Notes under the pieces: model-generated | The model's database searches: none | What the model saw: the letters and a program-made list of their open reading frames with translations, nothing else | Told to the model about the DNA's origin: nothing | Source: an uncultured Alphaproteobacteria bacterium | Lineage (GTDB): Bacteria; Pseudomonadota; Alphaproteobacteria; MPNO01; DASWLB01 | DNA: 64,000 nt | Assembly (NCBI GenBank): GCA_963775315.1 | Contig: CAVZIN010000003.1 | Location: forward strand, 72,011-136,010 | Direction of reading: 5' to 3' | Program-made: the position numbers and the translations under genes | Shown here: piece after piece, positions 11,059 to 55,165 of the stretch | How positions within the stretch are numbered: the first letter of the stretch is position 1 | Layout of the letters: the number at the start of each line of letters is the position of its first letter

Positions 11059-11349
11059 ATGGCCAGCCACGAGGCGCAGACGACGACCGACCACCAGACG
11101 ATCCGGCGCTGGGCCGAGGCGCGCGGCGGCAAGCCGGCGGCGGTTTCCGCGACGCACAAGGGCGACGACGCGGGCATCCTGCGGATCGATTTCGACGCGC
11201 CGGAGGAAGGGCTCGAGCCCATTTCCTGGGATGCGTTCTTCGAGAAGTTCGAGGAGAGCCGGCTCGCCCTCCTCTATCAGGACAAGACCCAGTCGGGCGA
11301 GACCAGCCGCTTCTTCAAGCTCGTCCGCCGCGACGACGCCAGCCATTAG
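11059..11349 (+). CDS. Small conserved hypothetical protein (~96 aa)
   Basis: ATG at 11059 is preceded by GGGAGAGGA. The composition is not Arg/Ala-biased: 'MASHEAQTTTDHQTIRRWAEARGGKPAAVSATHKGDDAGILRIDFDAPEEGLEPISWDAFFEKFEESRLALLYQDK...'. It converges on the MTase gene, and their stop codons overlap (TTAG). Confidence 0.55.
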   Translation: MASHEAQTTTDHQTIRRWAEARGGKPAAVSATHKGDDAGILRIDFDAPEEGLEPISWDAFFEKFEESRLALLYQDKTQSGETSRFFKLVRRDDASH

Positions 11350-12158
11350 GCCGGCGTTCGCCGCGTCCCGCCCGACCAGGCGCGGCCGGTGGCGGCGGAC
11401 CATTCCTCGACGCGGCCGAACGGGCGCGCGTCAGGATCGGAGGCACAGACATAGATCTCGTGGCCGGGCCGGGCCAGGATGCGAAAGCCGGCGGCGCGCA
11501 GCATCGCCTCGACGGCCGCCTCGTTGGCCGCCCACCACACCGTGGGGTCGCCCGCGAAGTCGCCCTCGACGAAGCTGAGCCGGGGCCAGCCGGGCGCCGC
11601 CATCGCCTGCCGGGTCTGGAACTCCAGCCGGTCAGGCGCCGGCGCGGAAGTTGGTTCGCCCGGCACCGTCAGGGTTTGGAACACCATCAGCCGCGGCGCG
11701 AGGCGCGCCATTGTGTCGAGCGCCAGCATCGGGTACCGCAGATGGTAGGCGACGCCCATGAAGAACACGAGGTCGTAGCGCGTCCGGCTGCGCGCCAGCG
11801 CGTGGATCTGGCGGCGCTGGAACCGAACCCGGCCGGCGAGCCCCATCCGCCGCGCCGCCCAGCGCGCCTGCTTCAGATAGTGGTCGTCGCAGTCGATGCC
11901 GGTGACGCGCGCGCCGCGCCTGGCCAACTCGAAGGCATAGAACCCGGCGTTGCAACCGATCTCCAGCGCGCGCCAGCCGTCGAGGTCGCCGGGCAGGTGC
12001 GGTGCGATCTCGCGCCATTTCCAGGCGGGGAAGTCGCCGAACGGGTGGTCGGGCCGCGTCTCGCGCCCGTCCGGCAAATGCAGGTTCTGGAACCACGGCC
12101 CCAGCGCGGCGATGGCGTCGCGCTCGACGGGATCGGCCCGGCGCTCGGCCACGGTCAC
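11346..12158 (-). CDS. Class I SAM-dependent methyltransferase (last gene of the glycosylation operon)
   Basis: Motif I 'LEIGCNAGFYAFELARRGARVTGIDCD' with downstream MTase fold motifs. GTG start at 12158 overlaps the upstream TGA (GTGA), and a GGAGG SD sits upstream. The track ORF's long N-terminal extension is Arg/Ala junk. Confidence 0.85.
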   Translation of the reverse strand: MTVAERRADPVERDAIAALGPWFQNLHLPDGRETRPDHPFGDFPAWKWREIAPHLPGDLDGWRALEIGCNAGFYAFELARRGARVTGIDCDDHYLKQARWAARRMGLAGRVRFQRRQIHALARSRTRYDLVFFMGVAYHLRYPMLALDTMARLAPRLMVFQTLTVPGEPTSAPAPDRLEFQTRQAMAAPGWPRLSFVEGDFAGDPTVWWAANEAAVEAMLRAAGFRILARPGHEIYVCASDPDARPFGRVEEWSAATGRAWSGGTRRTPA

Positions 12159-13240
12159 GCCTCCGCGGGGCTCGCGGCCCGGCAGGAAAGCAGCAGCGTC
12201 TCGAGCTCCGCGGCGCGGCAGGCGGCGGTGTGCTCGGCCATTACGCGCCGCCGCGCCGAGTTCGCGATGGCGTTGCGCGTCGTGTCGGGCGTGTCGCGCA
12301 GGATCGCCACCGCCTCGTCGGTGTCGCGCGCGATCAAAATGTCGCGCCCGGGCGTGAAGAACTGATCGATCCCGTCCCACCGGTCGCTGACGATCGGCAC
12401 GCCGCACGCGGCCGCCTCGAACAGCCGCACGCTCGGCGACCAGCCGGCTTCGGTCATCGCTTTCCGCGTGATGTTCAGGGTGAAGCGCTGGGCCGAGTAG
12501 AAGGCGCGGTGCGCGCCGGGCGCGACGTGCTCGATCCGCTCGACGTTCGCCGGCCACTGGATGTCGGCCGGGTATTGCGGGCCGCCGACGACGAAGCGCG
12601 CGTCGGCCATCTCGCCCGCCGGGCCGAGCAGCAGCGCGTCGAGACCCGGCTGGCGGTCGTCGCTGTAGGTACCGAGATAGCCGAGCAGCCAGCGGCGATC
12701 GACGCGCTCCGGGTAATGCAGCTCGGGATCGACGGCGCAGTAGAGCGCCGCAGCGCGCCTGGCGCCGAACCTTCGCTCGATGCGGGCGAGCATCGGACCG
12801 CCGGTGAAGGAGAGGTAGAGATCGAAGCGCGGCACCAGCGCGCGAGAGAGATAGGCGCAGTCGCCGGTCTCCAGCGCCGCCACCGTGATCGGCGTGTCGA
12901 TATCGTAGAATGCGGTTGCCCCGCGCGTCGTATCGCACACCCAGCCCGCCACTGCGATCCCGTCCGGCACGTAGGAGCCGACGATCACCGCGGCCGCCTC
13001 GCGCACCAAGGCCGAGAATCGGTCGCGAAGCTCCTCGGTCGAGCCGTAGAGGTGCGTTCGCCCATAGGGCGGGTCGGGCAGGTCGCGGTTCGCTGCGTAC
13101 CATTCGACATCGCGCTCGAGGAACGTCACCTCGTGGCCGCGCCGGACAAGCTCGCGCACCAGCCCGCGATAGGTGGTCGCGTGCCCGTTGCCCCAGGACG
13201 AGGTGATCGAGAGCCCGCAGATGACGATGCCGAGACTCAT
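12155..13240 (-). CDS. CgeB-like glycosyltransferase (DUF3880 / Glyco_trans_1_2 type), paralog C
   Basis: 'MSLGIVICGLSITSSWGNGHATTYRGLVREL...' N-terminal motif and a C-terminal GT-B half ('FEAAACGVPIVSD'). 361 aa. Its ATG overlaps the upstream stop (ATGA). Confidence 0.85.
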   Translation of the reverse strand: MSLGIVICGLSITSSWGNGHATTYRGLVRELVRRGHEVTFLERDVEWYAANRDLPDPPYGRTHLYGSTEELRDRFSALVREAAAVIVGSYVPDGIAVAGWVCDTTRGATAFYDIDTPITVAALETGDCAYLSRALVPRFDLYLSFTGGPMLARIERRFGARRAAALYCAVDPELHYPERVDRRWLLGYLGTYSDDRQPGLDALLLGPAGEMADARFVVGGPQYPADIQWPANVERIEHVAPGAHRAFYSAQRFTLNITRKAMTEAGWSPSVRLFEAAACGVPIVSDRWDGIDQFFTPGRDILIARDTDEAVAILRDTPDTTRNAIANSARRRVMAEHTAACRAAELETLLLSCRAASPAEA

Positions 13241-14322
13241 TCGGCCGCCGATATTTCGGCCTGGCCGTAGAGCAGCGCCTCGACCAGCGCCGCGCGCTGC
13301 GCATAGGTGTGGTGGGCGAGGACGCGGGCGCGGGCCGCGCGGCCGATCTCGGCGGCGGCCTGCATGGTGGTGCGGCCCAGATGCGCGGCGACGTCGGCGC
13401 CGTGGGCGGCGACCAAAATCTCGCGTCCCGGCTCGAGGAACGTCTCGATCCCCTCCCACGCGTCGGAGATCAGGCAGGCGCCGGCGCCCGCCGCCTCGAA
13501 CACGCGCGTCGCGGGCGAGAAGCCGAACCGGGCCATCAACTCGCGGCTGATGTTGAGGACGCAGCGCGCCGAGCAGTTGATGACGTTGTGGTCGCGGGTG
13601 AAGACGTGGCCGATGGCGCGTACGTTGGGTGGCACCTCGGCGCCCGGCCAGCCGTTCCCGCCCAGAAGAATGCGGTCCTCCGGTCGGCGGCGCGCCGCTT
13701 CGAACAGGAACGCGTCGACCCTCGCCTCGCGATCGGGCAGCCTGTTGCCGACGAAGGCGAGGTCGGCGGCGAAGCTTACCGACGGCGGAACCGGATGGTG
13801 CGTTTCTGGATCGACGGCGTTGTAGATCGGCGTGCAGGCGCGCGCGCCGAGCGCCCGATAGGCGCGGCATACCGGCTCGCCGCCGCCATAGGTCAGCACC
13901 CGGTCGAAGCGCGGGATCAACGAGCGCAGCCGGTCGTTCGGATCCGCCGCGATGGATTCCAGCGTCGCCGGCGCATCGACGTCCCAGAAGATGGCGGCCC
14001 GGTGCGGGACGCGTAGCGCGACCACCGCTGCCTCCAGCTCGGCGTCGAGCACGCCGACACCCGATGCCTTCACCACCACGTCCGCCGATGTCGCCTCGTC
14101 GAGCGCGCGTTCCATCCCGTCCGCGGTCGGCGCGTAGACCACGACGCGCGCCCAATCCGGGTCGGGCATGTCGCGATGGGCCTGACGTTCGAACGCGTCG
14201 GGCTCGTAGAACGCGATCTCGTGTCCGCGCGTGGCCAGCGCCTTCAGAAGGCCGCGATAGTAGGTGGCGGCGCCGTTCCAGTAAGCGGAGACGAGGCTCG
14301 ATCCGAAGAACGCAATCCGCAT
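13237..14322 (-). CDS. CgeB-like glycosyltransferase, paralog B
   Basis: 'MRIAFFGSSLVSAYWNGAATYYRGLLKAL...FEAAGAGACLISD'. 361 aa, with an ATGA overlap to the upstream gene. Confidence 0.85.
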   Translation of the reverse strand: MRIAFFGSSLVSAYWNGAATYYRGLLKALATRGHEIAFYEPDAFERQAHRDMPDPDWARVVVYAPTADGMERALDEATSADVVVKASGVGVLDAELEAAVVALRVPHRAAIFWDVDAPATLESIAADPNDRLRSLIPRFDRVLTYGGGEPVCRAYRALGARACTPIYNAVDPETHHPVPPSVSFAADLAFVGNRLPDREARVDAFLFEAARRRPEDRILLGGNGWPGAEVPPNVRAIGHVFTRDHNVINCSARCVLNISRELMARFGFSPATRVFEAAGAGACLISDAWEGIETFLEPGREILVAAHGADVAAHLGRTTMQAAAEIGRAARARVLAHHTYAQRAALVEALLYGQAEISAAE

Positions 14323-15461
14323 CAGACGAGGCTCCCGGCAAGTACGGGCCGTGGTTCCGGCGCGCGCCCCAGCGCATTGAGAATGTCCATCAGCTCGTCC
14401 ACCCGGTGCGCGCACGTATGGCGCGCGCGGATGGTGCGAAGGCCGTTGGCGGCGAGCTGCGCCGCGAGCGCGTCGTCGGACGCGACGGCCTTGAGGTGCG
14501 CGGTCATTTCCGCGCCGTCGCGCGCGCGGAGATAGTCTTCGTGACCGAACAGCCCCTCGGCGTCGTCCCACGGCGCGGACACCAGCGGAATGCCGCAGGC
14601 CAGCGCCTCGAACATGCGGATGGTGGGGATGCCGGGCAGGGCGCGGGCGTAGGGCCGGCGCGGCACGTGCACCGTTACCCGGTGCGCGGCGAAGGCGTCG
14701 GGCACGCGATGGTTGGCGATCCAGCCTTCGTAGCCGATGCCGTGGTGGCGCAGCAGCTCGCGCGCGTGGCGCGGGTACCGCACGCCATGCACGCGTGCGG
14801 GCAGGCCCAGCGCATGCGCCGGCTCGACCAGGAAGGTGCGCAGCTCGCGGCTCCGCTCGCCGTCGCCCCAATTGCCGATCCAAATCAGACCGGCGCGCGC
14901 TTCCGGCTTCGGCGCGCCGGCGGGATCGGGGCGGAACACCGCCGTGTCGGCGGCCTCGTGCCAGGTCCAGGCGCGGCGGCCCCAGCCGCGAGCGCGGTAG
15001 GCCTCCGCCAGCACCGCGCCGAAGGCGAGCACGCCGTCGTAATCCTCGATGCCCATGGCGTCGAGCTCGTCCGGCGCCGTGAGGGCACGGTGGTGGGTGT
15101 CGTGGAACAGCAGGCGGAAGCGGCCGCCCGCGGCGCGTCGCCGCCCGATCGCCCGTGCCAGCGCGGGGTCGGTCCATTCGTGCACGATCACAAGCTCGGC
15201 GCCGTCGAGCGCGGCGTCGAGTTCGAGCGTCTCCGAGTCGTAGAGCCACGGGCGGAGATGGGGAAAGCGCAGCTCGACATCGGCAAGCGCCGCCGGACCC
15301 TGTTCCGCCAGCAGGTGCGTCCGGCTCCACCCGTCCTCCGGCTCGAACACCGCGAGATCGTGGCCGCGCCGCATCAGCTCGCCCGCGATGCCGCGCATGA
15401 AGTGGGCGTTGCCGTGGTTCCAGTCCGAGAGGATGGAATGGCAGAAGAGCGCGATCTTCAC
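14322..15461 (-). CDS. CgeB-like glycosyltransferase, paralog A
   Basis: '(V)KIALFCHSILSDWNHGNAHFMRGIAGEL...FEALACGIPLVSA'. 379 aa, GTG start with a GTGA overlap to the upstream gene. Confidence 0.85.
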   Translation of the reverse strand: MKIALFCHSILSDWNHGNAHFMRGIAGELMRRGHDLAVFEPEDGWSRTHLLAEQGPAALADVELRFPHLRPWLYDSETLELDAALDGAELVIVHEWTDPALARAIGRRRAAGGRFRLLFHDTHHRALTAPDELDAMGIEDYDGVLAFGAVLAEAYRARGWGRRAWTWHEAADTAVFRPDPAGAPKPEARAGLIWIGNWGDGERSRELRTFLVEPAHALGLPARVHGVRYPRHARELLRHHGIGYEGWIANHRVPDAFAAHRVTVHVPRRPYARALPGIPTIRMFEALACGIPLVSAPWDDAEGLFGHEDYLRARDGAEMTAHLKAVASDDALAAQLAANGLRTIRARHTCAHRVDELMDILNALGRAPEPRPVLAGSLV

Positions 15462-16591
15462 AGCGCGGGCTCCAGCCGCCGGGTACGGGCGCGCCCGCCG
15501 GTCAACGCCGCGTACGCGTCGCAATAGAGATCGACCATGCGTGGCGCCGAGAAGCGCCGCGCATGCAGCCGGGCGGCCTCGCCCAGCGCGCGGCAGCCAT
15601 CCTCGTCCGCCATCAGCCCGGAGAGGGCGCGGGCCAGGAGATCGGGCCGGGCTGGATCGACGAACATGGCCGCGCCGTCCCACAGCTCGCGGAGCGTTGG
15701 GATGTCGCCGAGCACCAGCGCCGCGCCCGCCATGGCCGCTTCGAGCACCGCCAGCCCGAACGGCTCGTAGCGCGCGGGGTGTGCGAAGATCGCCGCCTCG
15801 CCGAGCCAGCGCGCAAGTTCAGGCTCCGCGAGCCTCCCGAGCCAGGTGACGCTGTCCGGCGGCACGTCCCCTCCGCCGCCGTCGGGCGCGGCGACGTCGC
15901 CCGCCACCAGCACCGGCCAGGGCAGGTCGCATCCGGCCTCGGCCATTGCGCGGACGTTCTTCGCCTCGTCCCACAGGCGTCCGCAGCCGAACACGCAGCG
16001 CCGCTTCGGCAAGGGCGGGAAGCGCCGCCCGTCGCGCCCGTTCGGGATGACGGCACACCGTCCCGGTGCGCCGTAGATCGCCGCGATCTCGGCGAGGAAC
16101 GCGCGCGTCGGCGCGACCAGCAGCCCGGCGGCGGCAATTCCCTCGGCAACGCGGCTCCGGTAGATGTCCCATTCCGCTGGCGCGTCGCACCCGCGGCAGG
16201 CACGCCACCACGAGGCGACGCAGGAATGGGCCACCGCGACGGTCGGCGCGCGCCAGCCCAGCGCCGCATGAGCGTACCCGTTGAGATGCACCAGGTCGGG
16301 CCGCACGCGCCGCTCGAGCGCGAGCAGCCATTCGCCCTGGCGGAGCACGTCGCATTCGGCGCCCGGCATCCATTCGAGCCGCCCGCCCAGTGTCTCGACC
16401 ACGAGGCGCGGGATCGACTGCGCCTCGGCGCGCTGCGCCGCGCTGGGTGCCGGGCCGAGCGCGCAGAGCGTCACCTCGGTGCCTCGGGCGGCGAGGCCCC
16501 GCGCCAGCTCGATCGCGTAGGTCCAGACGCCGCCGACCGCGTCGGTGGTCATCAGCACGCGCCGCGGCGCATCGGCGACGGACGGCCTCAT
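15458..16591 (-). CDS. Family 4 (GT-B, RfaB-like) glycosyltransferase
   Basis: GT4-type C-terminal domain ('EPFGLAVLEAAMAGAALVLGDIP'). 377 aa, with an ATGA overlap to the upstream gene. Confidence 0.85.
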   Translation of the reverse strand: MRPSVADAPRRVLMTTDAVGGVWTYAIELARGLAARGTEVTLCALGPAPSAAQRAEAQSIPRLVVETLGGRLEWMPGAECDVLRQGEWLLALERRVRPDLVHLNGYAHAALGWRAPTVAVAHSCVASWWRACRGCDAPAEWDIYRSRVAEGIAAAGLLVAPTRAFLAEIAAIYGAPGRCAVIPNGRDGRRFPPLPKRRCVFGCGRLWDEAKNVRAMAEAGCDLPWPVLVAGDVAAPDGGGGDVPPDSVTWLGRLAEPELARWLGEAAIFAHPARYEPFGLAVLEAAMAGAALVLGDIPTLRELWDGAAMFVDPARPDLLARALSGLMADEDGCRALGEAARLHARRFSAPRMVDLYCDAYAALTGGRARTRRLEPAL

Positions 16592-17703
16592 GGCGCAGCG
16601 CGCTCCAAATCGGCGAGCGGCGCCGGCGCCTCGTCCTGAATGTCGCTAAAGGCGCCGAACCGGTCGCGATAGTAGTCGACCGCCCGCTCCCAGGCCCGCG
16701 CGTCGGGCTCGCCCCAGAGCCGCCGGTAGTCGGGCGTGCCGGGATAGGGGAACAGCGGCACCGGGTCGTTGGCCCAGATGCCATGGGCCCGCACCCGCTC
16801 GCGCCAAGCGGCGACCTCGCGCGAATCGTCCTCCGGCGTCAGGATCAGGTTCGCCTGCACGAAGGGCACGTGGCGCTTCGCCTCGATCAGCAGGCCGGTC
16901 AGCGCCTCGGTGTCCACGCGGCAGTCCTTGGACAGCCAGTCACGGCCGGCTTCGGTCAGGCTCTCGACGCCGGCCTCGATCGAGACGCACCCGGCGCGGC
17001 CGAGCAGCGCGATCGTGTCCGGCTTCCAGAGATCGAGCCGCGTCTGCACGCCGAACTTCAGCCCGCGCCCGACCAGCGCCTCCAGCAGCGGCCGGTTCGG
17101 CAAAAAGATTTCGTCGACGAAATAGACGTACTCGACGCCCTGGTTCTGCAGGCGCGCGATCTCGGCGTCGGTCCAGGCGAGCGGCGGCAAATCGACGAAT
17201 TTCGTCGCGCGCGGCCCGCCGCGCCGCCGGATCCGCCCGTCGCGCTTGAAGCAGATGCCTTGCACCTCGGCGTCGCCGCGGGCCAGCTCGGCCAGCGTCT
17301 CCTCGCACTCGCCCATCACCACGATGTCGGCGCCGAGCTTCGCGAGGGCCGGTTCGGGCGTGGTCGAGCCGTGCGGCCCGACGGCGACGGTGAGGCCGGC
17401 GACGTCGCGCACCGCCGCCAGCGTCGCCTGCGGCACGCGCAGCTCGGGCGGTGGGCAGCGCCAGAACAGATAGGTCGGTGCAGTGGTGACGACGGTCATT
17501 TCCGGCCGGAAGGTGGCGAGGCGGCGGGCGAGGGCGGCACCGTCGAGCCCTTCGGCATGGGCGTCGATCAGGGCGACCTCGTGGCCGTCGCGCTGCAGCA
17601 AGGCGCGGGCGCAGCCGAGCTCGAGCGGCAGATGGCGCTCGCGGCAGCCGAAATAGATGCTGCGCGCGAAGGTCCAGTCGGGATTGACCAGCGCGATCCT
17701 CAT
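16588..17703 (-). CDS. B12-binding-like / radical-SAM-like TIM-barrel protein lacking the CxxxCxxC motif
   Basis: N-terminal Rossmann-like B12-binding-type domain ('MRIALVNPDW...IVVMGECEE'), followed by radical-SAM-fold motifs ('YFVDEIF', 'GCVSIEAGVESL', 'LILTPEDD...LFPYPGTPDY'). No Cys triad is present. 371 aa, with an ATGA overlap to the upstream gene. Confidence 0.75.
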   Translation of the reverse strand: MRIALVNPDWTFARSIYFGCRERHLPLELGCARALLQRDGHEVALIDAHAEGLDGAALARRLATFRPEMTVVTTAPTYLFWRCPPPELRVPQATLAAVRDVAGLTVAVGPHGSTTPEPALAKLGADIVVMGECEETLAELARGDAEVQGICFKRDGRIRRRGGPRATKFVDLPPLAWTDAEIARLQNQGVEYVYFVDEIFLPNRPLLEALVGRGLKFGVQTRLDLWKPDTIALLGRAGCVSIEAGVESLTEAGRDWLSKDCRVDTEALTGLLIEAKRHVPFVQANLILTPEDDSREVAAWRERVRAHGIWANDPVPLFPYPGTPDYRRLWGEPDARAWERAVDYYRDRFGAFSDIQDEAPAPLADLERAAP

Positions 17704-19766
17704 GCGACCCGCCCCGTCGGCTCGGGCAGCGCCTCCGGCGTCGGTGCGCCGAGGGGCCCGGGCGCCGTCAGCGGCGCGGTGGCCAGAGGGAAGGCCGGCG
17801 CGCCGGTCAGCCAGGCGTGCAGCTTGGCGACGCCTTCGTGCGCCTTGACGTGCGGCCGCCAGCCCGTGGCCGCGCGGAACCGGCGGGTGTCCGAGGCGTA
17901 CCAGACCTGGTCGCCGGGCCGCCACGCGGCGTAGTCGATGTCCGGCGTGCGGCCGGTCAGCTCGCCGATCCAGCCGACGAGGTCGCGCAGGCTGATCGCG
18001 TTCTCCGGCCCGCCGCCGAGGTTGAATGCGCGTCCGGCGACTGCCTGCGTGTTCTTCAGCGCCAGCAAATAGGCCGCGACCACGTCGTCCGCGTACAGCA
18101 CGTCGCGCACCTGGCAGCCGTCGCCGTAGATGGTGATCGGCCGGCCGGCGAGCGCCGAAATCAGGAAATGCGCGACCCAGCCCTGGTCCTCCGTGCCGAA
18201 CTGGCGCGGGCCGTAGAGGCAGCTCATGCGGAACACGGTGGCGGGCACGCCGAACGTGCGCGCGTAATCCAGGATGTACTGGTCGGCGATGCCCTTGGAG
18301 CAGCCATAGGGCGTGCGCAGATCGAGCGCACGGCCCTCGCCGACGCCGTGGCGGGCGAGGTCCGGGTCGGTCGGCAGGTACCTGTCGCCGCGACGCGCGC
18401 TGGTTTCCGCGTCGAGCAGCGCGCCGTAGACCTTGTTGGTCGAGGCGAACAGGACGGGCGGCGGGCTCGGCCGGTGGCGCAGCGCCTCCAGAAGGTTGAG
18501 CGAGCCGCGCGCGTTCACCTCGAAATCGTCGATCGGCGCGGCGAGGCTCGTCGTCACCGCCACCTGGGCGGCGAGATGGACCACGGCCTTGGCGTCGCGC
18601 GCCGCCGCGCGGAGCGCGTAATAGTCGCGCACGTCGCCGACCTCGACCGCGATCCGCGAGGGGTAGCGCGCGCGCAGCCATTGCAGGTTCTCCTCGACCC
18701 GTGCGCGGGCGAGGCTGTCGAACACCACGACCTGCTCGCCCGTCTCGGCGAGGCGCGCGGCGATGTTGCTGCCGAGGAAACCGGCGCCGCCGGTCACCAG
18801 CACGGCGGGGCGGGCGCGGCGGACGTTCGCCGCCTTCACCTCGCGCGCGAGGCGCTTCGCGCCCGCGAGCCCGCCGGAGGCGAGGGCGCGGTGCACGAGC
18901 TTCGGCTGGCCGTCGGCACGCACGATCCCGGTGTGGTAGTGGCGCTCGTCGAAATGAAAGCCTTCCTGGCTTTCCAGCTCGGGATCGAGGTCCTGGTAGG
19001 AATACCAGTAGACGCGCTCGGCCGGGGCAGCGAGGGCGTCGAGGAACAAGGCGAGCTGGCGCCCTTCCTGGTGGCGCCAGGTGGAGTGGCCCGCCTCTGT
19101 GATCCACACCTCGGGCGTGCAGCCGTGCCGCGCCAGCACCTCGCGCACACTCTCGATCTCGGGCTCCCACCCCTGCCACTGGGCGTTCCAGGTTTCGGGG
19201 AAGCCGTGCACCCCGACCGCGTCGATATGGGCCATGACGCCGCGCCGGCACATCAGCGCCAGCCAGTTCGAATCGGTCGGGCACATGCCGCCCAGCACGG
19301 TGCGCTTGCCCCGCTCCTTCATCCAGTAGGCCGCGCTGCCGACCATCTCGGAGAAGGCACGCCACTCGGCGTCGAGGTGCCAGTTCCAGTCGTTGAGGTT
19401 GTTCGGTTCGTTCCAGAGCTCGACCCAGTCGAAATGACGGCCGTGGCGGCTGACGAACACGTCGAGGAAATCCGCGTAGGACTTCGGGTCGCGCGGCGGC
19501 GCGGTCGTGGTGCCGTCGAGGCTGAGAGACGGCGGGGTGTAGTGGAAGCAGGGCAGTACCTCGAGCGTGCGCGCCAGCTCGGGCAGCAGCCAGCCATACC
19601 ACGCTTCGCCGTCCGGCCGGTGCCAGTCGGCCCACGACACGCCGATGCGCACATGCCGCGCGCCGATGGCGGAAAGCCCGTCGATCATCCTTAAGGCGCG
19701 CTCTCTCTCGCCCGGCCGCAGCCATTCGACGACACCCCATGGGCGCTCGATGCGGGACCGCGCCAT
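17700..19766 (-). CDS. Fusion protein: clan GH-A glycoside-hydrolase TIM barrel (GH5/GH39-like) + NAD-dependent sugar epimerase/dehydratase
   Basis: N-terminal half carries 'VELWNEPNN' (acid/base NEP) and 'VWITEAGHS' (nucleophile TE). C-terminal half carries 'VLVTGGAGFLGSNIAARL', 'YGCSKGIADQY' (YxxxK) and 'YGDGCQVRDVLYADDV'. ATG at 19766 ('MARSRIERPW'). Confidence 0.85.
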   Translation of the reverse strand: MARSRIERPWGVVEWLRPGERERALRMIDGLSAIGARHVRIGVSWADWHRPDGEAWYGWLLPELARTLEVLPCFHYTPPSLSLDGTTTAPPRDPKSYADFLDVFVSRHGRHFDWVELWNEPNNLNDWNWHLDAEWRAFSEMVGSAAYWMKERGKRTVLGGMCPTDSNWLALMCRRGVMAHIDAVGVHGFPETWNAQWQGWEPEIESVREVLARHGCTPEVWITEAGHSTWRHQEGRQLALFLDALAAPAERVYWYSYQDLDPELESQEGFHFDERHYHTGIVRADGQPKLVHRALASGGLAGAKRLAREVKAANVRRARPAVLVTGGAGFLGSNIAARLAETGEQVVVFDSLARARVEENLQWLRARYPSRIAVEVGDVRDYYALRAAARDAKAVVHLAAQVAVTTSLAAPIDDFEVNARGSLNLLEALRHRPSPPPVLFASTNKVYGALLDAETSARRGDRYLPTDPDLARHGVGEGRALDLRTPYGCSKGIADQYILDYARTFGVPATVFRMSCLYGPRQFGTEDQGWVAHFLISALAGRPITIYGDGCQVRDVLYADDVVAAYLLALKNTQAVAGRAFNLGGGPENAISLRDLVGWIGELTGRTPDIDYAAWRPGDQVWYASDTRRFRAATGWRPHVKAHEGVAKLHAWLTGAPAFPLATAPLTAPGPLGAPTPEALPEPTGRVA

Positions 19767-20884
19767 CACGCGACCAGCCCCCGGCTGACCAGCTCCTCCG
19801 TCGCACTGTCGACGCGGTCGGTCGCGATCTGGTCGGCCAGCCATTCGACGAGGTCGGCGAGCCCGGCTTCGAGCGAGACGCGCGGGCGGTAGCCGAGCGC
19901 CTCGGCGGAAACGCTCACGTCGGCGAAGTTGTGGCGGATGTCGCCCGCGCGATAGCGCCCGGCGATCTCCGGCGCGATGTGCGGCTTGCCCATCAGCGCC
20001 GCCATCCGCCTGGCGATGGTGGCGATGGAATGGTCCTCGCCGCTACCGATGTTGAACGAGACGCCGCTCACCTCCGTCGCCTCCAGCGCCAGCCGGAAGG
20101 CGCGCCCCACGTCGCGCGCGTGGACGAAGTCGCGCCGCTGCTCGCCGTCCTCGAAGATCAGCGGCGCGCGCCCGTTCAGCAGGCGCGAGGCGAAGATGGC
20201 GAGCACGCCGGTATAGGGGTTGGAAAGTGCCTGGTTCCGCCCGTACACGTTGTAGAGGCGGAGCGCGACCGTGCCCATGCCGTAGGCTTGGCCGACCACG
20301 TGGCACATCTTCTCCTGCACGTACTTGCCGAGCGCGTAGACCGAGGCGAGGTCGGGCCGCTTGGTCTCCGGCGTCGGGATCGGAACGAGCGGCCGGCCTT
20401 GATCGTCGCGGAGCTCCCATTCGCCGCGATTGAGCTGTGCGGCACCGCGCGGGGCCGGCTCGTGGGGATTGCCGTCGGCGTCGCGGCAGAGCCCCTCGCC
20501 GTAGATGCTCATCGACGAGGCGATAACCATGCGCTCGACCGGCTGGCGCGCGATCTCCTGAAGAAGAATCGCAGTGCCGAGGTCGTTGACGGCGGTGTAG
20601 TCCGCAATCTGGTACATGCTCTGGCCGACGCCGACGCGCGCGGCAAGATGGATGACGGCGTCGGCGCGGGCGAGCGCGCGGGCGACGGCCTCGGCGTCGC
20701 GCACGTCGCCCGGGATCAGCTCCGCCTCGCGCGCCAGGTAGTCCGGCCGCGCCCGCGTCTCGCCGTGAATTTGTGGAAGAAGTGAGTCGAGTATGACGAC
20801 CTCGTGCCCGGCCGCCAGCCGCTCGTCAGTGATGTGTGTTCCGATGAAACCAGCGCCCCCCGTCACAAGCACTCGCTTCGGCAT
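19766..20884 (-). CDS. NAD-dependent epimerase/dehydratase (extended SDR), first gene of the operon
   Basis: 'MPKRVLVTGGAGFIGTHI', YxxxK 'YALGKY'. ATG at 20884 is preceded by GGGGAGAG. The track start (TTG at 20899) is less likely. Confidence 0.85.
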   Translation of the reverse strand: MPKRVLVTGGAGFIGTHITDERLAAGHEVVILDSLLPQIHGETRARPDYLAREAELIPGDVRDAEAVARALARADAVIHLAARVGVGQSMYQIADYTAVNDLGTAILLQEIARQPVERMVIASSMSIYGEGLCRDADGNPHEPAPRGAAQLNRGEWELRDDQGRPLVPIPTPETKRPDLASVYALGKYVQEKMCHVVGQAYGMGTVALRLYNVYGRNQALSNPYTGVLAIFASRLLNGRAPLIFEDGEQRRDFVHARDVGRAFRLALEATEVSGVSFNIGSGEDHSIATIARRMAALMGKPHIAPEIAGRYRAGDIRHNFADVSVSAEALGYRPRVSLEAGLADLVEWLADQIATDRVDSATEELVSRGLVA

Positions 20885-22062: not shown

Positions 22063-23290
22063 ATGTCCGAACTCAATCTCGTTCTCGCCGTGCTCGGCGG
22101 GGTGACGCTGGTCCTCAGCCTCAGCGTCGACTACGTGCGCGGCCGGCTGCTGCCGCTGTCGGAGCCGCTGCTCGCCACCCTGGCCGGCGTCGCCGCCGGG
22201 CCGGTCGGGCTCGGCTGGATCGCGCTCGACCACTGGGGTCGCCGCGCACGCTGCTCGAGGAGGTGGCGCGGGTCATCGTGGCGCTCGCCGTGATGGGCGC
22301 GGCGCTTCGCCTACCGCCCGCCTATTTCCGCCGCCAGTGGCGGGCGATGGCGGTCGCGCTCGGTCCGGTGATGATGGTCGGCGCCGTGGTGGCCGGCATC
22401 GCCGGCTGGAAGATCCTCGGCGTGCCGTTCTGGCAGGGGGCGCTGATCGGCGCGATCCTCACCCCGACCGACCCGGTGGTGGCTGGTGCGATCGTCGCCG
22501 GCCCGCTCGCCGGGGAAACGTTGCCGACGCGCCTCCGGCGCCTGATCTCGGGCGAGTCGGGCGCCAACGACGGCATCGCCTACCCCATCGTGTTCCTGCC
22601 CGTGCTCATGCTGGTGCATCCGGCGAACGAGGCGCTCGGGCTCTGGGTCGGCGACCGGGTGGTGTGGGCGACGCTTGGTGGGGCGGCGCTCGGCGCGGCG
22701 GCGGGCTACGTCGCGGGGCGGGCGCAGATCCTCGCCGAATCGCACGGCTTCGCCTCCGGCCACGCGCTGGTGACCGGCGTCACCGCGTTCGGGCTCGCGC
22801 TGCTCGGGCTGCTCGGGCTCGCCGGCGCCGACGGAGTGCTCGGCGTGTTCGTCGCGGGGCGCCTGTTCGGCCACGTGGTCGAGACCGAACGGGTGACAGA
22901 GCAGGGCGAGCTGCAGGAGATCATCCGCTGGCTGTTCACCATCCCGAATTTCGTGCTGTTCGGCGCCGCGCTGCCCTGGGCGGGCTGGCACGCGCTCGGT
23001 TGGCCTGGGGTTGGCCTCGCCGTCGCGGTGCTGCTGCTCCGCCGCGTCCCGGTGATCCTGGCTGCGCGGCGCAGCCTGCCGCTCGACCGACCGGCCGACC
23101 TCCTGTTCTACGCCTGGTTCGGTCCGCTCGGCGTCGCCTCGATCTTCTACGCGACGCTCGCGACACGGCTCACCGGGCTCGACGTGGTGTGGCAGGCGTC
23201 GAGCCTCGTCGTCGCGCTCTCGATCCTGGTGCATGGCGCGACGGCGACGCCGTTCCTCCAGCTCTACGCCCGCAAGGTTCCCCGCGAACT
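22063..23290 (+). pseudogene. CPA1 (NhaP-type) Na+/H+ antiporter, frameshifted
   Basis: The N-terminus ('MSELNLVLAVLGG...GWIALDHWG') lies in frame 1, and the remainder ('PRTLLEEVARVIVALAVMGAALRL...') lies in frame 3 from ~22239. This is an apparent 1-nt deletion in the GGGG run at 22235-22238. There is no stop codon before the topoisomerase ORF. Confidence 0.6.
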
Positions 23291-23363
23291 CCGGAACGGA
23301 GGAAGGCGCCGGCCGTTGAGAGCCTGCGGATCATCGAGTGTCTGGCGTGGTGCGAGTGGTGGC

Positions 23364-24695
23364 ATGACGGTGGCGCGGGCGAGAGGCGGATTGCGGCAGG
23401 TTGGGCCCGAGGCGCTTGTGTTGCGGCGCCGCCGCGCCGGGCGCGGGTTCGTCTATCTCGACGAGAAGGGCCGCCAGGTGCGCGACCGCGCGACCCTCGC
23501 CCGCATCCGGAGCCTCGCCGTGCCGCCCGCCTACGAGGACGTGCAGATCGCGCGCGACGCCGACGCCCACCTGCAGGCCGTCGGGCGCGACGCGGCGGGG
23601 CGCGTCCAGTACCGCTATCACCCCGCCTGGACCGAGGAGCGCGAGGCGCGCAAGGTCGAGCGGCTGGGCGCGCTTGCCGCTGCCCTGCCGCACCTCCGCC
23701 GCAGCGTCGCCCGCGACCTCGCACGGCCCGAGCTGTGCCGTCGCCGGGTCCTCGCCGCCGTGATCTCGCTGATCGACAAGACCCACGTCCGCATCGGGTG
23801 CGAGGACTACGTCCATACCGGGCGGAGCCGCGGCGCGGCGACGCTCCTCAAGCGCAACGTGCGGGTCGCTGGCGACCGGGTAGCACTCGACTTCCGCGGC
23901 AAGGGCGGGCGGGCGATCGAGTGCGCGGTGCGCGCGCCGGCGCTCGCCCGCACGGTCCGCGCGCTCAAGCGCCAGCCGGGACCGCGCCTGTTCCGCTTTC
24001 GCGGCGAGGACGGCAGGCTGCACAACCTGACCGCCGCCGACGCCAACGCCTATCTGCAAGAGGTGACGGGCGAGGGGGTGACGGCGAAGGACTTCCGCAC
24101 GCTCGCGGCGACCGCGACGGCGGCCGAGCGGCTCGGCGCGCTCGAGCCGGGCCCCAGCGCCACCGCGCGGCGGCGCCAGATCAACGGCGTGATGCGCGAG
24201 ATCGCCGAGATGCTGGCCAACACCCCCGCCGTCACGCGTAAGAGCTACGTCCACCGCCGGCTGGTCGACGCTTTCGAGCGGGGCACGCTTGCCTCGCTCG
24301 TTGCCGGCTGCGACCGGCCGCGCGGCCTCGCCTGTGGCGAGGCGGTGGTCGCCGCCCTGTTCTCGCCGACGGGCGGGACTGACCGCCCCGGAACCCGTTC
24401 CTGCCGCGCACGTTGGTGGGGCGATCCGGGTTGCTGGAAGGGAACGAGCCATGCCCGCGAAGTCGAAGAAGCAGCAGATGGCCGCGGGAGCGGCGCTCTC
24501 GGCCAAGCGCGGCGAGCGCAAGAAGTCGAGCCTCCGCGGCGCCTCCGAAGGGATGGTCGAATCGATGAGCGAGAAGGAGCTCGAGCGCATGGCGAGCACC
24601 AAGCGCAAGGGAAAGCCGACGACCGCGAACAAGACGTCGAGCGCGAAGTCGACGTCCTCGAAGAAGAAATAGCCGGCCTCAGATCTCCTTCATGA
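23364..24695 (+). CDS. DNA topoisomerase IB (poxvirus/eukaryote-like TopIB)
   Basis: 'GFVYLDEKGRQVRD...IRSLAVPPAY...LQAVGRDAAGRVQYRYH...TAKDFRTLAAT...NTPAVTRKSYVHRRL' includes the catalytic Tyr context SYVH. Its ATG is at 23364. The homologous part should end near ~24390, but the frame has no stop until 24695, so the 3' end is uncertain. Confidence 0.6.
   Translation: MTVARARGGLRQVGPEALVLRRRRAGRGFVYLDEKGRQVRDRATLARIRSLAVPPAYEDVQIARDADAHLQAVGRDAAGRVQYRYHPAWTEEREARKVERLGALAAALPHLRRSVARDLARPELCRRRVLAAVISLIDKTHVRIGCEDYVHTGRSRGAATLLKRNVRVAGDRVALDFRGKGGRAIECAVRAPALARTVRALKRQPGPRLFRFRGEDGRLHNLTAADANAYLQEVTGEGVTAKDFRTLAATATAAERLGALEPGPSATARRRQINGVMREIAEMLANTPAVTRKSYVHRRLVDAFERGTLASLVAGCDRPRGLACGEAVVAALFSPTGGTDRPGTRSCRARWWGDPGCWKGTSHAREVEEAADGRGSGALGQARRAQEVEPPRRLRRDGRIDEREGARAHGEHQAQGKADDREQDVEREVDVLEEEIAGLRSPS
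24451..24672 (+). CDS. DUF3008-family small basic protein
   Basis: 'MPAKSKKQQMAAGAALSAKRGE...SEKELERMASTKRKG' matches the characteristic DUF3008 start. GGAAGGGAA lies upstream. Confidence 0.8.
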   Translation: MPAKSKKQQMAAGAALSAKRGERKKSSLRGASEGMVESMSEKELERMASTKRKGKPTTANKTSSAKSTSSKKK

Positions 24696-49849: not shown

Positions 49850-50006
49850 ACTGGCGTATACGCCACCGGCACCGCCGCGCCCCATCCGTGATACTGTTGC
49901 CGAATTCGAAACAATTCCCATTGGCCCCGCTTCGGCGGAGGCGTAGGATCGGGCGAGGCCCAGCCATAAGGGCCAGGAGGTCGAGGCGTTCAGGGAGGCC
50001 GGCCGG

Positions 50007-50519
50007 ATGGGCCGCGTCGCAGCCGCTTATCTGCACCTCATCAACCTGCTGAAGACGCTGTCCGGCGTCATCATCTTCTGCGTCTTCCTGCTTATCGTAT
50101 CGGACGTGCTGATCCGGCTCGTGGGCCTCAACCCCTGGATCTATTCGACCGTGCTGGTCGAGTACGGGCTCCTCTGGTTCACCATGCTGGCCGCGCCCTG
50201 GCTCGCGCGTACCAAGGGCCATGTTTTCATCGACGCGATCACCCAACTCCTGCCGCCCGGCGTGCAGCGCGTGATCGCCAAGTTCGCCTATCTCGTCTGC
50301 ACGGCGACGTCGCTGTGCTTCGCCTACTACTCGGGACGACTGCTGATCAGCGCGATTGTCGGGCACGAGTTCGACACGCGCGCCGTCGACATGCCGATGT
50401 GGACGCTGCTCGCACCGCTGCCGCCCTGCTTCCTGATGGTGGCGATCGAGTACCTGCGATTCCTGGTCGGCATCGACTCGATGTACTCGTCCCGCACCGA
50501 GGTGAGGGACAGCGTGTAG
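50007..50519 (+). CDS. dctQ: TRAP transporter small permease
   Basis: Four-TM DctQ-like protein directly upstream of the large permease. Confidence 0.85.
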   Translation: MGRVAAAYLHLINLLKTLSGVIIFCVFLLIVSDVLIRLVGLNPWIYSTVLVEYGLLWFTMLAAPWLARTKGHVFIDAITQLLPPGVQRVIAKFAYLVCTATSLCFAYYSGRLLISAIVGHEFDTRAVDMPMWTLLAPLPPCFLMVAIEYLRFLVGIDSMYSSRTEVRDSV

Positions 50520-50521
50520 CG

Positions 50522-51838
50522 ATGGAATGGTACTGGGCCTTCGCGCTGCTGCTCGGGATGATCGTCGCGCTGCTCGGGCTCGGCCTGCCGGTCGCGCTCG
50601 CCTTCCTCGCCACCAACATCCTCGGCTGGCTCTACTTCAACGGCTGGAACCCGGAGGCGGTGATCCAGGTGGCCGACAACTCGACCATCCTGATCTCGCG
50701 CTTCACGCTCGGCCCGGTGCCGATGTTCATCATGATGGGCTCGCTGTTCTTCCACACCGGGCTGGCGGTGAGGGTGTTCGACGGGCTCGAGGTGCTGTTC
50801 GGCCGGCTGCCGGGGCGGCTCTGCTACCTGACCGTCGCGGGCGGCGCGCTGTTCGCGACGCTGACCGGCTCGTCGATGGCGAACACGGCGATGCTCGGCT
50901 CGCTGATGGTGCCGGAGATGCAGCGCCGCGGCTACAACTGGCGCATGTCGATGGGGCCGGTGCTGGGCTCGGGCGGGCTCGCCATGATCATCCCGCCGTC
51001 GGCGCTCGGCGTGCTGCTCGCCGCGGTTGCCGGCATCGACGTCGGCCAGCTTCTGGTGGCCGGCTTCGTGCCGGGCTTCGTGCTGGCCGGCCTGTTCGCG
51101 CTGCTGATCCGGCTACAGCTCTGGCTCGATCCGTCGGGCGCGCCGGAATACGACGTCGAGCGGACGACGCTCGCCACCAAGGCGCGGCTCTTCGCGGTGA
51201 ACATCCTGCCCATGGGCGTGGTGGTGTTCATGGTGGTCGGCTTCATCGTGCTCGGCTGGTCGACGCCGACCGAGGCCGCCGCGCTCGGCGTGCTCGGCGT
51301 GATGATTCTCGCCGCGCTGTTCCGCAAGCTCACCTTCAAGGCGATCGGCGTCTCGGTCGAGGGGACGGTGCGCGTCGCCGCGATGGTGTTCTTCATCCTG
51401 ATGAACTCGACCGTGTTCTCGCAGCTCCTCGCCTTCTCGGGCGCGTCGTCGGGCATGCTGGAATGGGTCGGCGGGTTCGACGTGTCGCGCTACTGGGTGC
51501 TCGCCGCGATGTTCGGCGTGCTGATCCTCCTCGGCATGTTCATGGACGGCGTGTCGATGATGCTGATCGCCGTGCCGATCTTCTTCCCGCTGGCCAAGCA
51601 TCTCGGCTTCGACCTGATCTGGTTCGGGCTGTTCGTGCTGCTGACGATCGAGATGGGCGGGACGACGCCGCCCTTCGGCCTGCTGCTCTACGTCATGCTG
51701 GGGATCGCGCCGCCGGGAACGACGCTGTTCCGCGTCGCGGGGGCGGCGCTGCCGTTCCTCGCCTGCGATGTGGTGCTGATCCTGCTGCTGGTCGCCTTCC
51801 CGGGGCTCGCGCTTTACCTGCCGCGCCTGATGTTGTGA
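50522..51838 (+). CDS. dctM: TRAP transporter large permease
   Basis: 'MEWYWAFALLLGMIVALLGLGLP...' DctM 12-TM layout. ATG lies 2 nt after the dctQ stop. The track ORF's upstream extension is out-of-frame junk. Confidence 0.9.
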   Translation: MEWYWAFALLLGMIVALLGLGLPVALAFLATNILGWLYFNGWNPEAVIQVADNSTILISRFTLGPVPMFIMMGSLFFHTGLAVRVFDGLEVLFGRLPGRLCYLTVAGGALFATLTGSSMANTAMLGSLMVPEMQRRGYNWRMSMGPVLGSGGLAMIIPPSALGVLLAAVAGIDVGQLLVAGFVPGFVLAGLFALLIRLQLWLDPSGAPEYDVERTTLATKARLFAVNILPMGVVVFMVVGFIVLGWSTPTEAAALGVLGVMILAALFRKLTFKAIGVSVEGTVRVAAMVFFILMNSTVFSQLLAFSGASSGMLEWVGGFDVSRYWVLAAMFGVLILLGMFMDGVSMMLIAVPIFFPLAKHLGFDLIWFGLFVLLTIEMGGTTPPFGLLLYVMLGIAPPGTTLFRVAGAALPFLACDVVLILLLVAFPGLALYLPRLML

Positions 51839-51847
51839 GGCGCGGGC

Positions 51848-54100: not shown

Positions 54101-54195
54101 CCCGCGCCCGGCCGGGCCGCCTGCCCCGGCTTGAGGCGGCGCGGCCTCCGGGCGCATCATCGCGGCGGCACGGGGCGGACCGGGCGGAGGGGGCG

Positions 54196-54534: not shown

Positions 54535-54643
54535 GGGGCGTGCGGCGCTTTCATTAGCCTTCCACGTCCTGAGTTTGTCGAAGGATGAGGCTGGCGAAGG
54601 ATGAGGCCATTCCGGCGGCATAGCCGCTCGTGCCGCCGCCGCC

Positions 54644-55139: not shown

Positions 55140-55165
55140 CCCTTCAAGACGAAGGGAACACGGTT

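Follow-up and report, generated by a model that had tools for sequence, protein, structure and literature searches.

At one locus of an uncultured Alphaproteobacteria bacterium, a single reading frame joins a barrel resembling glycoside hydrolases to a sugar-nucleotide epimerase, amid a set of glycosyltransferase (GT) genes. This raises the question of whether such a fusion is real, and what a polypeptide of this kind would do in a GT operon. We addressed it in a 64,000-nucleotide stretch of DNA, here called the window, and in related genomes.

Integrity and distribution of the fusion

The fusion gene and its neighbors are arranged as follows:

19766..20884, minus strand: GalE-like SDR, 372 aa (Pfam Epimerase, 1e-48), upstream of the fusion gene and translationally coupled to it
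17700..19766, minus strand: fusion gene, a single ORF of 688 aa, GH-A-like barrel plus TyvE-like SDR
16588..17703, minus strand: TIGR04295 B12-binding/radical-SAM (rSAM) homolog, 371 aa, without CxxxCxxC (NCBIfam, 551 bits, cut-off 400)
15458..16591, minus strand: GT4 glycosyltransferase (Pfam Glyco_transf_4 and Glycos_transf_1)
14322-15461, 13237-14322 and 12155-13240, minus strand: three consecutive CgeB-like GTs (PF13524, Glyco_trans_1_2; Pfam E 9e-34 to 1e-38)
11346..12158, minus strand: TIGR04290-family SAM methyltransferase, 270 aa (NCBIfam, 302.2 bits, cut-off 300)

The fusion is one polypeptide, as the first-pass annotation of this DNA had proposed. Its minus-strand ORF spans 17700..19844, and from the in-frame ATG at 19766, which shares one nucleotide with the stop of the upstream gene (TGATG), it reads through 688 aa with no internal stop. 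Its GC3 of 0.87 is that expected for coding DNA, given a window of 70% GC. The two halves are colinear in 80/80 related genome loci, as they are in over 120 equally long database proteins, which excludes a frameshift or assembly artefact, and the homologous fusion genes of the 80 genomes contain no stops. For a pseudogene, or a sequencing or assembly error that united two genes, no support was found, although the adjoining rSAM gene has an in-frame deletion that points to some decay within the operon (it aligns to the TIGR04295 model in two separate segments, about 51 aa being absent, and the ortholog at locus L002 has CPYACTFC). With an intact, coding-type frame and the same architecture in so many independent genomes, the probability of this reading is negligible. 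The fusion gene encodes a genuine two-domain, soluble cytoplasmic enzyme. Its full-length AF2 model (pLDDT 87.5, pTM 0.88) predicts that the two domains pack rigidly against one another.

The fusion is the standard form of a widespread, uncharacterised protein family and not a one-off. The architecture is present in at least 583 species-level genomes from about ten phyla, so that its earlier description as uncommon holds for the characterised literature only. Paracoccus, Cereibacter, Dyadobacter, Mucilaginibacter and Flavobacterium spp. are among the carriers of the system, fused or split. The closest named relatives of the window's fusion are Rhodospirillales MAGs, at about 60% identity. Some related genomes do encode the domains apart, a possibility that the first-pass annotation had asked to be checked. 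Mucilaginibacter, for example, has a stand-alone epimerase orthologous to the SDR domain (55% identity, E 2e-144) and a stand-alone, circularly permuted barrel adjoining a methyltransferase gene. Such separate genes back a functional link between the domains, in the Rosetta-stone sense, and do not refute it. The free permuted barrel keeps both catalytic glutamates and is 79-98% identical between genera, and at two loci (L082 and L085) the methyltransferase and barrel genes overlap stop to start. At the other extreme, two proteins (P0016 and P0028) are triple SDR-barrel-SDR fusions that carry the upstream SDR in the same polypeptide. We found no publications on this system in searches for the TIGR04295 and TIGR04290 families, for clusters of CgeB, methyltransferase and epimerase genes, or for fusions of PslG or TyvE type.

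A glycosidase-like barrel and an epimerase domain

Within the fusion gene, the following features were located:

18834..19739, minus strand: (beta/alpha)8 barrel, residues ~10-311, clan GH-A, PslG-like
19407..19412, minus strand: N119-E120, predicted acid/base, in a WNEPN motif just past strand 4, aligned to PslG 'WNEPN'
19095..19097, minus strand: E224, predicted nucleophile, in WITEAG, aligned to PslG 'WSTEWG'
17802..18806, minus strand: extended SDR, residues ~321-655, CDP-tyvelose 2-epimerase-like (matches to PDB 9rl0 and 1orr)

The view that the N-terminal half is a GH-A barrel holds up, with the catalytic pair at its canonical positions on alignment to the PslG motifs. The quoted ELWNEPNN motif is present (E120 codon at 19407-19409). 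In the predicted model strand 4 comprises residues 114-117 and is followed by N119-E120-P121, while strand 7 comprises residues 219-225 and holds E224 one residue ahead of its end. The domain thus combines what defines clan GH-A: a TIM-barrel fold, an Asn-Glu-Pro acid/base at strand 4 and a nucleophile Glu at strand 7. In PslG the corresponding acid/base and nucleophile are Glu165 and Glu276 (PMC11912335). Of 120 proteins, 115 keep E120 and 115 keep E224; among the 80 genomes the counts are 73 and 76, respectively, and R40, N119 and H187 are invariant (80/80). From these residues we predict a retaining-glycosidase domain of clan GH-A, with acid/base and nucleophile in place.

Assignment to an existing family is another matter. 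No Pfam family matches the N-terminal half at E<=10, all NCBIfam matches to the fusion protein lie far under their cut-offs, and PHROGs gave no match for the barrel, its phage relative or the permuted form. No curated Pfam or NCBIfam model spans the barrel, and the database label of the family is that of an epimerase only. In a phmmer search of the PDB the barrel reaches PslG at E 3e-4 and GH39 xylosidases weakly (E 0.17-1). With Pfam PF01229 as a proxy for GH39, the barrel lacks significant sequence similarity to that family (structural identity to PslG is 20%), and the additional non-barrel part that follows the catalytic barrel in PslG and the GH39 xylosidases is absent; a permuted relative reaches PF01229 only at E 0.058. 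These matches bear on a reading of the barrel as an ordinary catabolic beta-xylosidase or GH39-type enzyme, fused to the epimerase incidentally. Stand-alone permuted relatives are indeed named 'beta-xylosidase', 'glycosyl hydrolase' or 'GH5 family protein' in databases, and the GH39 xylosidases are the sole sequence-level PDB matches besides PslG. We nevertheless judge this reading very improbable, as Pfam GH39 is not matched, the resemblance to PslG is so distant, the fusion has no signal peptide, and its gene always lies in an operon of biosynthetic character, amid GTs, SDRs and a methyltransferase, where neither sugar transporters nor catabolic genes are conserved nearby.

An extended SDR, complete as had been noted, makes up the C-terminal half. 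The broader label 'epimerase/dehydratase' can be narrowed, since the domain matches CDP-tyvelose 2-epimerases over its full length (9rl0, TaTyvE, E 2.4e-77; 1orr, E 7.6e-72) and the next class follows at 1e-34. The quoted motifs were all located, as GGAGFLG (326-332), YGCSK (Y487/K491) and GDGCQVRD, and TGGAGFLG (325-332), STNKVYG, EDQGW and QVRD are also retained. The defining features of TyvE are the Rossmann glycines, a Thr-Tyr-Lys triad and a TNK segment (PMC13098431, PMC7851689). The domain has GxxGxxG, the triad and TNK, and T443-N444-K445, Y487 and K491 are invariant or nearly so across the fusion family. By alignment, then, the SDR domain is shown to have the fold, cofactor site, Thr/Tyr/Lys and TNK of CDP-tyvelose 2-epimerases. 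W530 and F534 are kept as well, whereas the VAM segment of TyvE reads VAV and the equivalent of TaTyvE Trp210 is His533, invariant in the family. This replacement suggests that the nucleotide preference may differ from CDP.

Operon context and the role of the barrel

As its signature component, the fusion belongs to a glycan-building operon that is widespread and uncharacterised, and its gene is co-inherited with a second SDR, four GTs of the GT-B type and a SAM methyltransferase. The conserved order is SDR, fusion, rSAM or ADH (with or without GFO), GT4, three CgeB-like GTs and the TIGR04290 methyltransferase. Membership of the fusion gene in the adjacent GT operon, an earlier suggestion, is borne out by the upstream SDR, which adjoins it in 78/80 loci, by GT4 in 72/80 and by the CgeB-like GTs in 69-73/80. 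The methyltransferase gene, whose GTG start overlaps the preceding stop (GTGA) in the window, is present in 49/80 loci and the rSAM gene in only 15/80; clusters of antisense ORFs in this 80-locus neighbor analysis are artefacts. The window's TIGR04295 and TIGR04290 homologs pass curated 'hypothetical equivalog' cut-offs, so the operon is already visible to curators as a recurring unassigned cassette. No signal peptide or TM segment was found in any operon protein. The surroundings of the operon in the 80 loci were searched for an exporter, nucleotidyltransferase or acceptor gene that is conserved, with none found, and the window's operon has no 3,6-dideoxyhexose pathway genes. A pyruvyl transferase or a gene of ABC exporter type occurs at some loci, a hint of a surface polymer in those organisms.

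Because the linkage between fusion and GT operon is conserved, the processing or transglycosylation step proposed for the barrel is reasonable, its activity being a prediction. The model that we favor, and hold to be fairly probable, is a bifunctional enzyme: it would supply a C2-epimerised NDP-hexose, and it would trim, prime or transglycosylate the product of the operon, a methylated, probably cytoplasmic glycan. The SDR domain would interconvert Glc- and Man-type hexoses through a 2-keto intermediate and provide the donor for the GTs. The barrel would act on the glycan product by double displacement via Glu224 and Glu120, cleaving or transferring beta-linked segments and so setting chain length or regenerating primers for the methyltransferase and GTs. 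It may also be a structural or binding part of an SDR-barrel-SDR assembly. Linkage chemistry speaks against this model: the retaining enzymes of GT4 as a rule form alpha bonds and those of clan GH-A cleave mainly beta (equatorial) ones, so that the bond attacked by the barrel is ambiguous. Hydrolysis of the NDP-sugar itself, as in hydrolysing 2-epimerases, was considered for the barrel and rejected, since NDP-D-hexoses are alpha-linked and the glycosides attacked by GH-A enzymes are beta/equatorial.

Not all members retain the catalytic glutamates: E120 and/or E224 is lost in 7/120 proteins and 10/80 genomes (~6-12%), so that a non-catalytic role of the barrel is probable as well. An entire Verrucomicrobiota clade carries E120K with the nucleophile retained, and the triple SDR-barrel-SDR fusions lack both glutamates. 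One could conclude that the barrel is mainly a carbohydrate-binding or scaffold module, a pseudo-glycosidase that holds the epimerase and the neighboring SDR together or ties them to the nascent glycan. These losses, in a domain whose R40, N119 and H187 stay invariant, speak for it, as does the full-length pTM, which suggests a fixed structural unit. We regard it as unlikely, given that both glutamates are kept in about 88-96% of members, inside invariant WNEP and TE.G motifs, and in the strongly conserved free permuted form. Moreover, three loci with dead-barrel fusions (L028, L037 and L085) have an intact free copy nearby, which suggests that catalysis is still required. The association between a dead barrel and a free permuted copy is suggestive over all loci (p 0.074) and reaches a Fisher p of 0.029 under a post hoc restriction to the few loci whose visible region includes the methyltransferase. 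A structural or binding role, with catalysis supplied by the free copy, would account for the retention of barrels without glutamates.

In the E120K clade the acid/base alone is naturally lost and the nucleophile kept, a pattern also shown by enzymes that favor transfer or activated substrates, such as GH1 myrosinases and thioglycoligase mutants. The barrel could be dedicated to transglycosylation, as a retaining GH that serves synthesis (elongation, branching or cyclisation of the glycan) and not trimming. We found no sequence features that separate transfer from hydrolysis, the operon already has four GTs, and the nearest structural relative, PslG, is a hydrolase (PMC11912335), which together make an exclusively synthetic enzyme decidedly unlikely.

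Extending the bifunctional model, we tentatively propose, as a possibility that we rate below even odds, that the barrel founds a new GH family in clan GH-A with three topologies (free, circularly permuted, and fused to the 2-epimerase). As an endo-glycosidase or transglycosylase it would provide self-priming or recycling in a new, phylogenetically widespread pathway for a cytoplasmic methylated oligo- or polysaccharide, and would be physically linked to the making of its own NDP-sugar donor, with the rSAM and ADH/GFO slot a non-orthologous displacement for one tailoring step. Should the bifunctional model hold, hundreds of species, from Alphaproteobacteria to Bacteroidota, Verrucomicrobiota and Cyanobacteria, would share an unrecognised modified-glycan pathway whose key enzyme is now mis-described as a plain epimerase, which a domain model for residues 10-311 would remedy. 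The barrel would add a subfamily to GH-A, and possibly a family to CAZy, and would be an example from nature of a TIM-barrel glycosidase with a strongly conserved circular permutation. Nucleotide-sugar tailoring would also be coupled physically to glycan processing, of which we found no published description. TyvE-like 2-epimerases are wanted as biocatalysts for NDP-mannose supply (PMC13098431, PMC12188384), which lends practical interest to this large, untapped clade with its altered nucleotide pocket.

Comparison with known systems

The closest structural relative of the barrel is PslG of Pseudomonas aeruginosa (CAZy GH39; PDB 4zn2, 5bx9 and 9g17), although identity between the two is no more than 20% and the barrel is not matched by Pfam GH39. 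With neither signal nor anchor sequence, the barrel is cytoplasmic, unlike PslG, which acts outside the cytoplasm. The PslG chain has 413 aa against ~311 aa for the barrel; some 100 extra residues are absent here, and the Rossmann domain follows the barrel directly.

For the C-terminal domain, TyvE/RfbE and TaTyvE (PDB 1orr and 9rl0) are the full-length counterparts. They share with it the NAD-binding glycines, the Thr/Tyr/Lys triad, TNK, Gln205, Trp207, Phe211 and a beta-hairpin insertion, and the equivalents of Arg237 and Arg299 are kept in 'QVRD' and 'WRPGDQ'. The differences are VAV for VAM and the invariant His in place of Trp210, a residue that contacts cytidine in TyvE, so that the preference for nucleotide or sugar may differ. 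Characterised TyvEs are single-domain chains of 340-347 aa, whereas here the SDR sits behind a 320-aa barrel, and two accounts of TyvE mention no hydrolase or fused domain (PMC13098431, PMC7851689).

At the level of the operon, NCBIfam families TIGR04295 and TIGR04290 admit the window's rSAM-like and methyltransferase genes, while the fusion protein and its barrel have no curated model. The role proposed for the barrel resembles that of PslG in Psl synthesis and that of MmpH in the synthesis of the mycobacterial methylmannose polysaccharide, an intracellular methylated polymer. The mycobacterial cluster (ManT, MeT1, MeT3 and MmpH) follows an analogous logic of soluble GT, SAM methyltransferases and dedicated endo-hydrolase, a functional analogy only. 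It offers a precedent for a cytoplasmic system of this composition, in which MmpH cleaves the finished polymer inside the cell, yielding primers that are elongated anew and capped with methyl groups (PMC9883506). Direct coupling of the methyltransferase and free barrel genes in loci of the fusion family recalls that arrangement. MmpH cleaves alpha-(1->4)-mannoside bonds, in contrast to the beta linkages typical of clan GH-A, and the window's operon differs from the mycobacterial cluster in its four GTs, its two or three SDRs and a tailoring slot of redox or rSAM type.

Reality and spread of the fusion family

The gene sits within a minus-strand open reading frame spanning 17700..19844 of the window. 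We adopted the in-frame ATG at 19766, which shares one base with the stop codon of the upstream gene (TGATG) and gives a 688-aa product; the other ATG, at 19844, would create a 78-nt overlap with that gene. Third-position GC is 0.87, matching the expectation for a true coding gene at the ~70% GC of the window. All motifs named in the first-pass annotation (ELWNEPNN, WITEAG, GGAGFLG, YGCSK and GDGCQVRD) are found in the protein, and the two halves form one ORF from which internal stops and frame changes are absent. The observation of a two-domain fusion is thus confirmed.

The first-pass annotation also called such a fusion uncommon, and here its interpretation is only partly supported: the fusion is real, but the architecture is standard in a widespread, unstudied family, and this description should replace the earlier one. 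Among the 5.8 billion proteins searched there are more than 120 colinear homologs, most of them 640-760 aa long with 53-66% identity at coverage of at least 92%. They derive from Alpha- and Gammaproteobacteria, Cyanobacteria, Chloroflexota, Bacillota and Planctomycetota, and databases call them ‘CDP-paratose 2-epimerase’, ‘NAD-dependent epimerase/dehydratase’ or ‘GDP-mannose 4,6-dehydratase’. Scanning one genome per species placed a relative in at least 583 species and added Bacteroidota, Verrucomicrobiota, Armatimonadota, Desulfobacterota and Ignavibacteriales. Barrel and SDR are contiguous in 80/80 related genome loci fetched around fusion homologs, with stop codons in none. Searched exhaustively against a representative library, the barrel alone matched 1,725 clusters at E<=1e-3, of which 136 reached E<=1e-30. 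The AF2 model of the full-length fusion has a pTM of 0.88, which is too high for independently tumbling domains, and a fixed barrel-SDR interface is therefore predicted.

Predicted activities of the two domains

Neither Pfam nor NCBIfam gave any match to the N-terminal half, even at E<=10. A phmmer search of PDB sequences matched PslG (GH39) at E 3e-4, in an alignment covering WNEPN and TE.G, the motifs that hold the PslG acid/base Glu165 and nucleophile Glu276 (PMC11912335). In the fusion, E120 lies just after strand 4 (114-117) and E224 inside strand 7 (219-225), one residue before the strand end. This ‘4/7’ placement of the catalytic glutamates is the defining trait of clan GH-A. R40, N119 and H187 do not vary, and W254 is almost invariant. 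Together, the PslG alignment, the glutamate placement and the conserved residues identify the domain as a PslG-like clan GH-A barrel. It fell outside GH39 in a sequence-level membership test, and unlike PslG it has no extra C-terminal part; it is probably a new GH-A family. In the fusion and its homologs a hydrophobic leader is absent, the N-terminus entering strand 1 directly.

Each glutamate is kept in 115/120 database proteins, and across the 80 genomes E120 is present in 73 and E224 in 76. Six Verrucomicrobiota loci (L015, L024, L036, L037, L046, L056) carry a clade-specific E120K (WNKP) with the nucleophile kept, a pattern compatible with either a switch from hydrolysis to transfer or a loss of activity. 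E224A occurs in three loci, including L029, which has E120A as well, and E224K in one. The remaining barrel signature is invariant in proteins that lost a catalytic Glu.

In the Pfam scan, residues 322-654 hit Epimerase (7e-49) and GDP_Man_Dehyd (1.5e-42), while the NCBIfam scan of this half reached no equivalog. Among solved structures the domain is clearly nearest in sequence to CDP-tyvelose 2-epimerases, aligning end to end with TaTyvE (9rl0, E 2.4e-77) and Salmonella TyvE (1orr, 7.6e-72); the next class (GalE, dTDP-glucose dehydratases) begins only at 1e-34. The functional residues of TyvE comprise the Thr124/Tyr164/Lys168 triad, the TNK segment, in which variants N125A and K126A are inactive, Gln205, Trp207, Phe211, the phosphate-binding Arg237 and Arg299, and a conserved beta-hairpin (PMC13098431, PMC7851689). 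All of these are kept, invariant or nearly so, in the fusion family. Unlike in TyvE, the VAM segment reads VAV, and the cytidine-contacting Trp210 (TaTyvE numbering) is an invariant His (His533 of the fusion). The domain is therefore predicted to be a TyvE-like NDP-hexose C2-epimerase of uncertain nucleotide preference.

Operon context and rearranged forms

The fusion is the second gene of a tightly coupled operon whose stop and start codons overlap throughout.

Operon features in the window
20884 down to 11346, minus strand: operon, in the order GalE-like SDR, fusion, TIGR04295 B12/rSAM homolog, GT4, three CgeB-like (PF13524) GTs, TIGR04290 methyltransferase
16588-17703, minus strand: TIGR04295 B12-binding/rSAM homolog, 371 aa against a 422-position model, no CxxxCxxC

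Of the 80 loci, 78 have the upstream SDR adjacent to the fusion, 72 contain GT4, 69-73 the CgeB-like GTs and 49 the methyltransferase. The position behind the fusion varies between loci: 15 carry the rSAM gene and 59 an MDR-type Zn-alcohol dehydrogenase (ADH), with or without a Gfo/Idh/MocA oxidoreductase (GFO). When in the operon, either lies between fusion and GT4, although the ADH/GFO pair is sometimes elsewhere in the locus. The two alternatives never occur together (0/80 loci; for example L002 5791-7062 versus L008 12108-14140), a pattern suggesting that one tailoring step has undergone non-orthologous displacement. In rSAM orthologs such as that of L002, CPYACTFC falls in ~51 residues absent from the window homolog. 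An in-frame deletion appears to have removed them and should abolish radical-SAM chemistry; the window holds no ADH/GFO substitute.

No TM-like segment was found in the eight operon proteins of the window (maximum 19-aa hydropathy 1.73, against 2.58 for a neighbouring CDF transporter), so the enzymes, as distinct from the final product, are predicted to be cytoplasmic. Around the operon, no conserved exporter, nucleotidyltransferase or membrane protein was found in the 80 loci.

The barrel also occurs apart from the SDR. In some loci a ~294-aa gene immediately follows a TIGR04290-like methyltransferase, begins at ‘WNEPN’ (strand 4), and runs through the nucleophile to strand 8 and then strands 1-3. 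BLAST confirms the circular permutation, with residues 5-191 matching barrel 115-296 (E 3e-31) and 197-294 matching 10-109 (E 5e-13).

Rearranged barrel genes in related genome loci
L042 2281-3165; L028 15112-16041; L081 9001-9885; L085 5510-6397: permuted stand-alone barrel after a TIGR04290-like methyltransferase
L084 475-3768 (protein P0016); L085 9326-12556 (protein P0028): triple fusion of upstream SDR, barrel and TyvE-like SDR, ~1,080-1,100 aa

The permuted family is very large (at least 8,000 matches) and shows 79-98% identity between Bacteroidota genera; database names for it are ‘beta-xylosidase’ or ‘glycosyl hydrolase’, and it passes PF11790 only marginally. That the domains might be separate genes in relatives, a check proposed at first pass, is borne out by Mucilaginibacter robiniae. 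In its split operon, the ortholog of the fusion's SDR domain is a stand-alone SDR of 358 aa (55% identity, E 2e-144), and ADH, GFO, GT4 and CgeB-like GTs come after it. Methyltransferase and permuted barrel lie in divergent orientation, and a second barrel is absent from the locus. As Rosetta-stone evidence of the classic kind, this pattern of fusion and fission argues that upstream SDR, barrel and TyvE-like SDR function together.

The barrels of both triple fusions lack both catalytic glutamates (WSGPSN, ITGAG). An intact permuted copy adjoins the methyltransferase in three loci whose fused barrel lacks a catalytic Glu (L028, L037, L085). The association is weak when all 80 loci are counted (2/10 versus 2/70, p 0.074); among loci with the methyltransferase in view it is 2/4 versus 2/45 (p 0.029, post hoc test). 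Our reading is that the predicted catalysis matters to the system and could be supplied in trans, the fused barrel having also a structural or binding role.

A FrhB/FdhB-like gene with a polysaccharide pyruvyl transferase (L081 11184-13678, L082 9249-11581) adjoins a module of methyltransferase, permuted barrel and a ~310-aa gene without assigned function. The transferase hints at pyruvylation of the glycan in some lineages. At L085 an ABC exporter-type gene accompanies the methyltransferase/permuted-barrel module. With such genes at some loci, certain lineages may export the product.

Free barrels without permutation, of ~310-340 aa, also exist. One, P0270 (326 aa, 41% identity to the window barrel; L088 8001-8981, L089 2497-3477), lies in a phage or prophage, with RusA/antiterminator-like genes and small ORFs on one side and terminase genes on the other. 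This interval is the usual site of the lysis cassette. P0270 may be an endolysin or depolymerase; it has no PHROGs family.

Elsewhere in the window, a plus-strand 810-aa ORF at 22263-24695, judged by eye from its translation, seems to join a cation/proton-antiporter-like membrane part to a C-terminal type IB topoisomerase-like part; it may represent a fusion or two separate genes. In 5 loci, an ORF with similar topoisomerase-like character lies near the operon. A TPP riboswitch (RF00059) is found at 55865-56018 on the plus strand (57.1 bits, gathering score 54.3), and no tRNA genes occur across the 64 kb. AT skew is -0.31 at 50001-52000, and GC falls to 0.61-0.62 at 54001-56000 and 60001-62000, against ~0.70 elsewhere.

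Proposed pathway and precedents

Each domain is of a kind already known, clan GH-A for the barrel and TyvE-like extended SDRs for the C-terminal half. We found no description in the literature of the fusion family, the unannotated barrel, the conserved operon or the three barrel topologies, and the operon is covered only by the ‘hypothetical equivalog’ models TIGR04290 and TIGR04295. The fusion is unsurprising in principle, yet it offers a well-defined, testable entry to a glycan pathway without prior description.

With the folds, catalytic residues and enzyme solubility established, and the linkage to GTs, SDRs and methyltransferase known to be conserved, one possible pathway can be outlined. 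The SDR domain would epimerise C2 of an NDP-hexose by way of a 2-keto intermediate, as in TyvE, and its product would be the donor for the operon GTs. The barrel would act on a beta-linked bond in the resulting glycan by retaining double displacement with Glu224 and Glu120, leading either to hydrolysis (chain-length control or primer regeneration) or to transfer to another chain. GT4 enzymes usually form alpha bonds, which is a weak point of the proposed beta-linked bond.

There are two nearest mechanistic precedents. The first is PslG, an operon-encoded retaining endoglucanase. The second is the mycobacterial MMP cluster, whose cytoplasmic endo-hydrolase, MmpH, cleaves the mature polymer to yield primers for the mannosyltransferase and methyltransferases (PMC9883506). 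The direct coupling of methyltransferase and barrel genes is consistent with this scheme.
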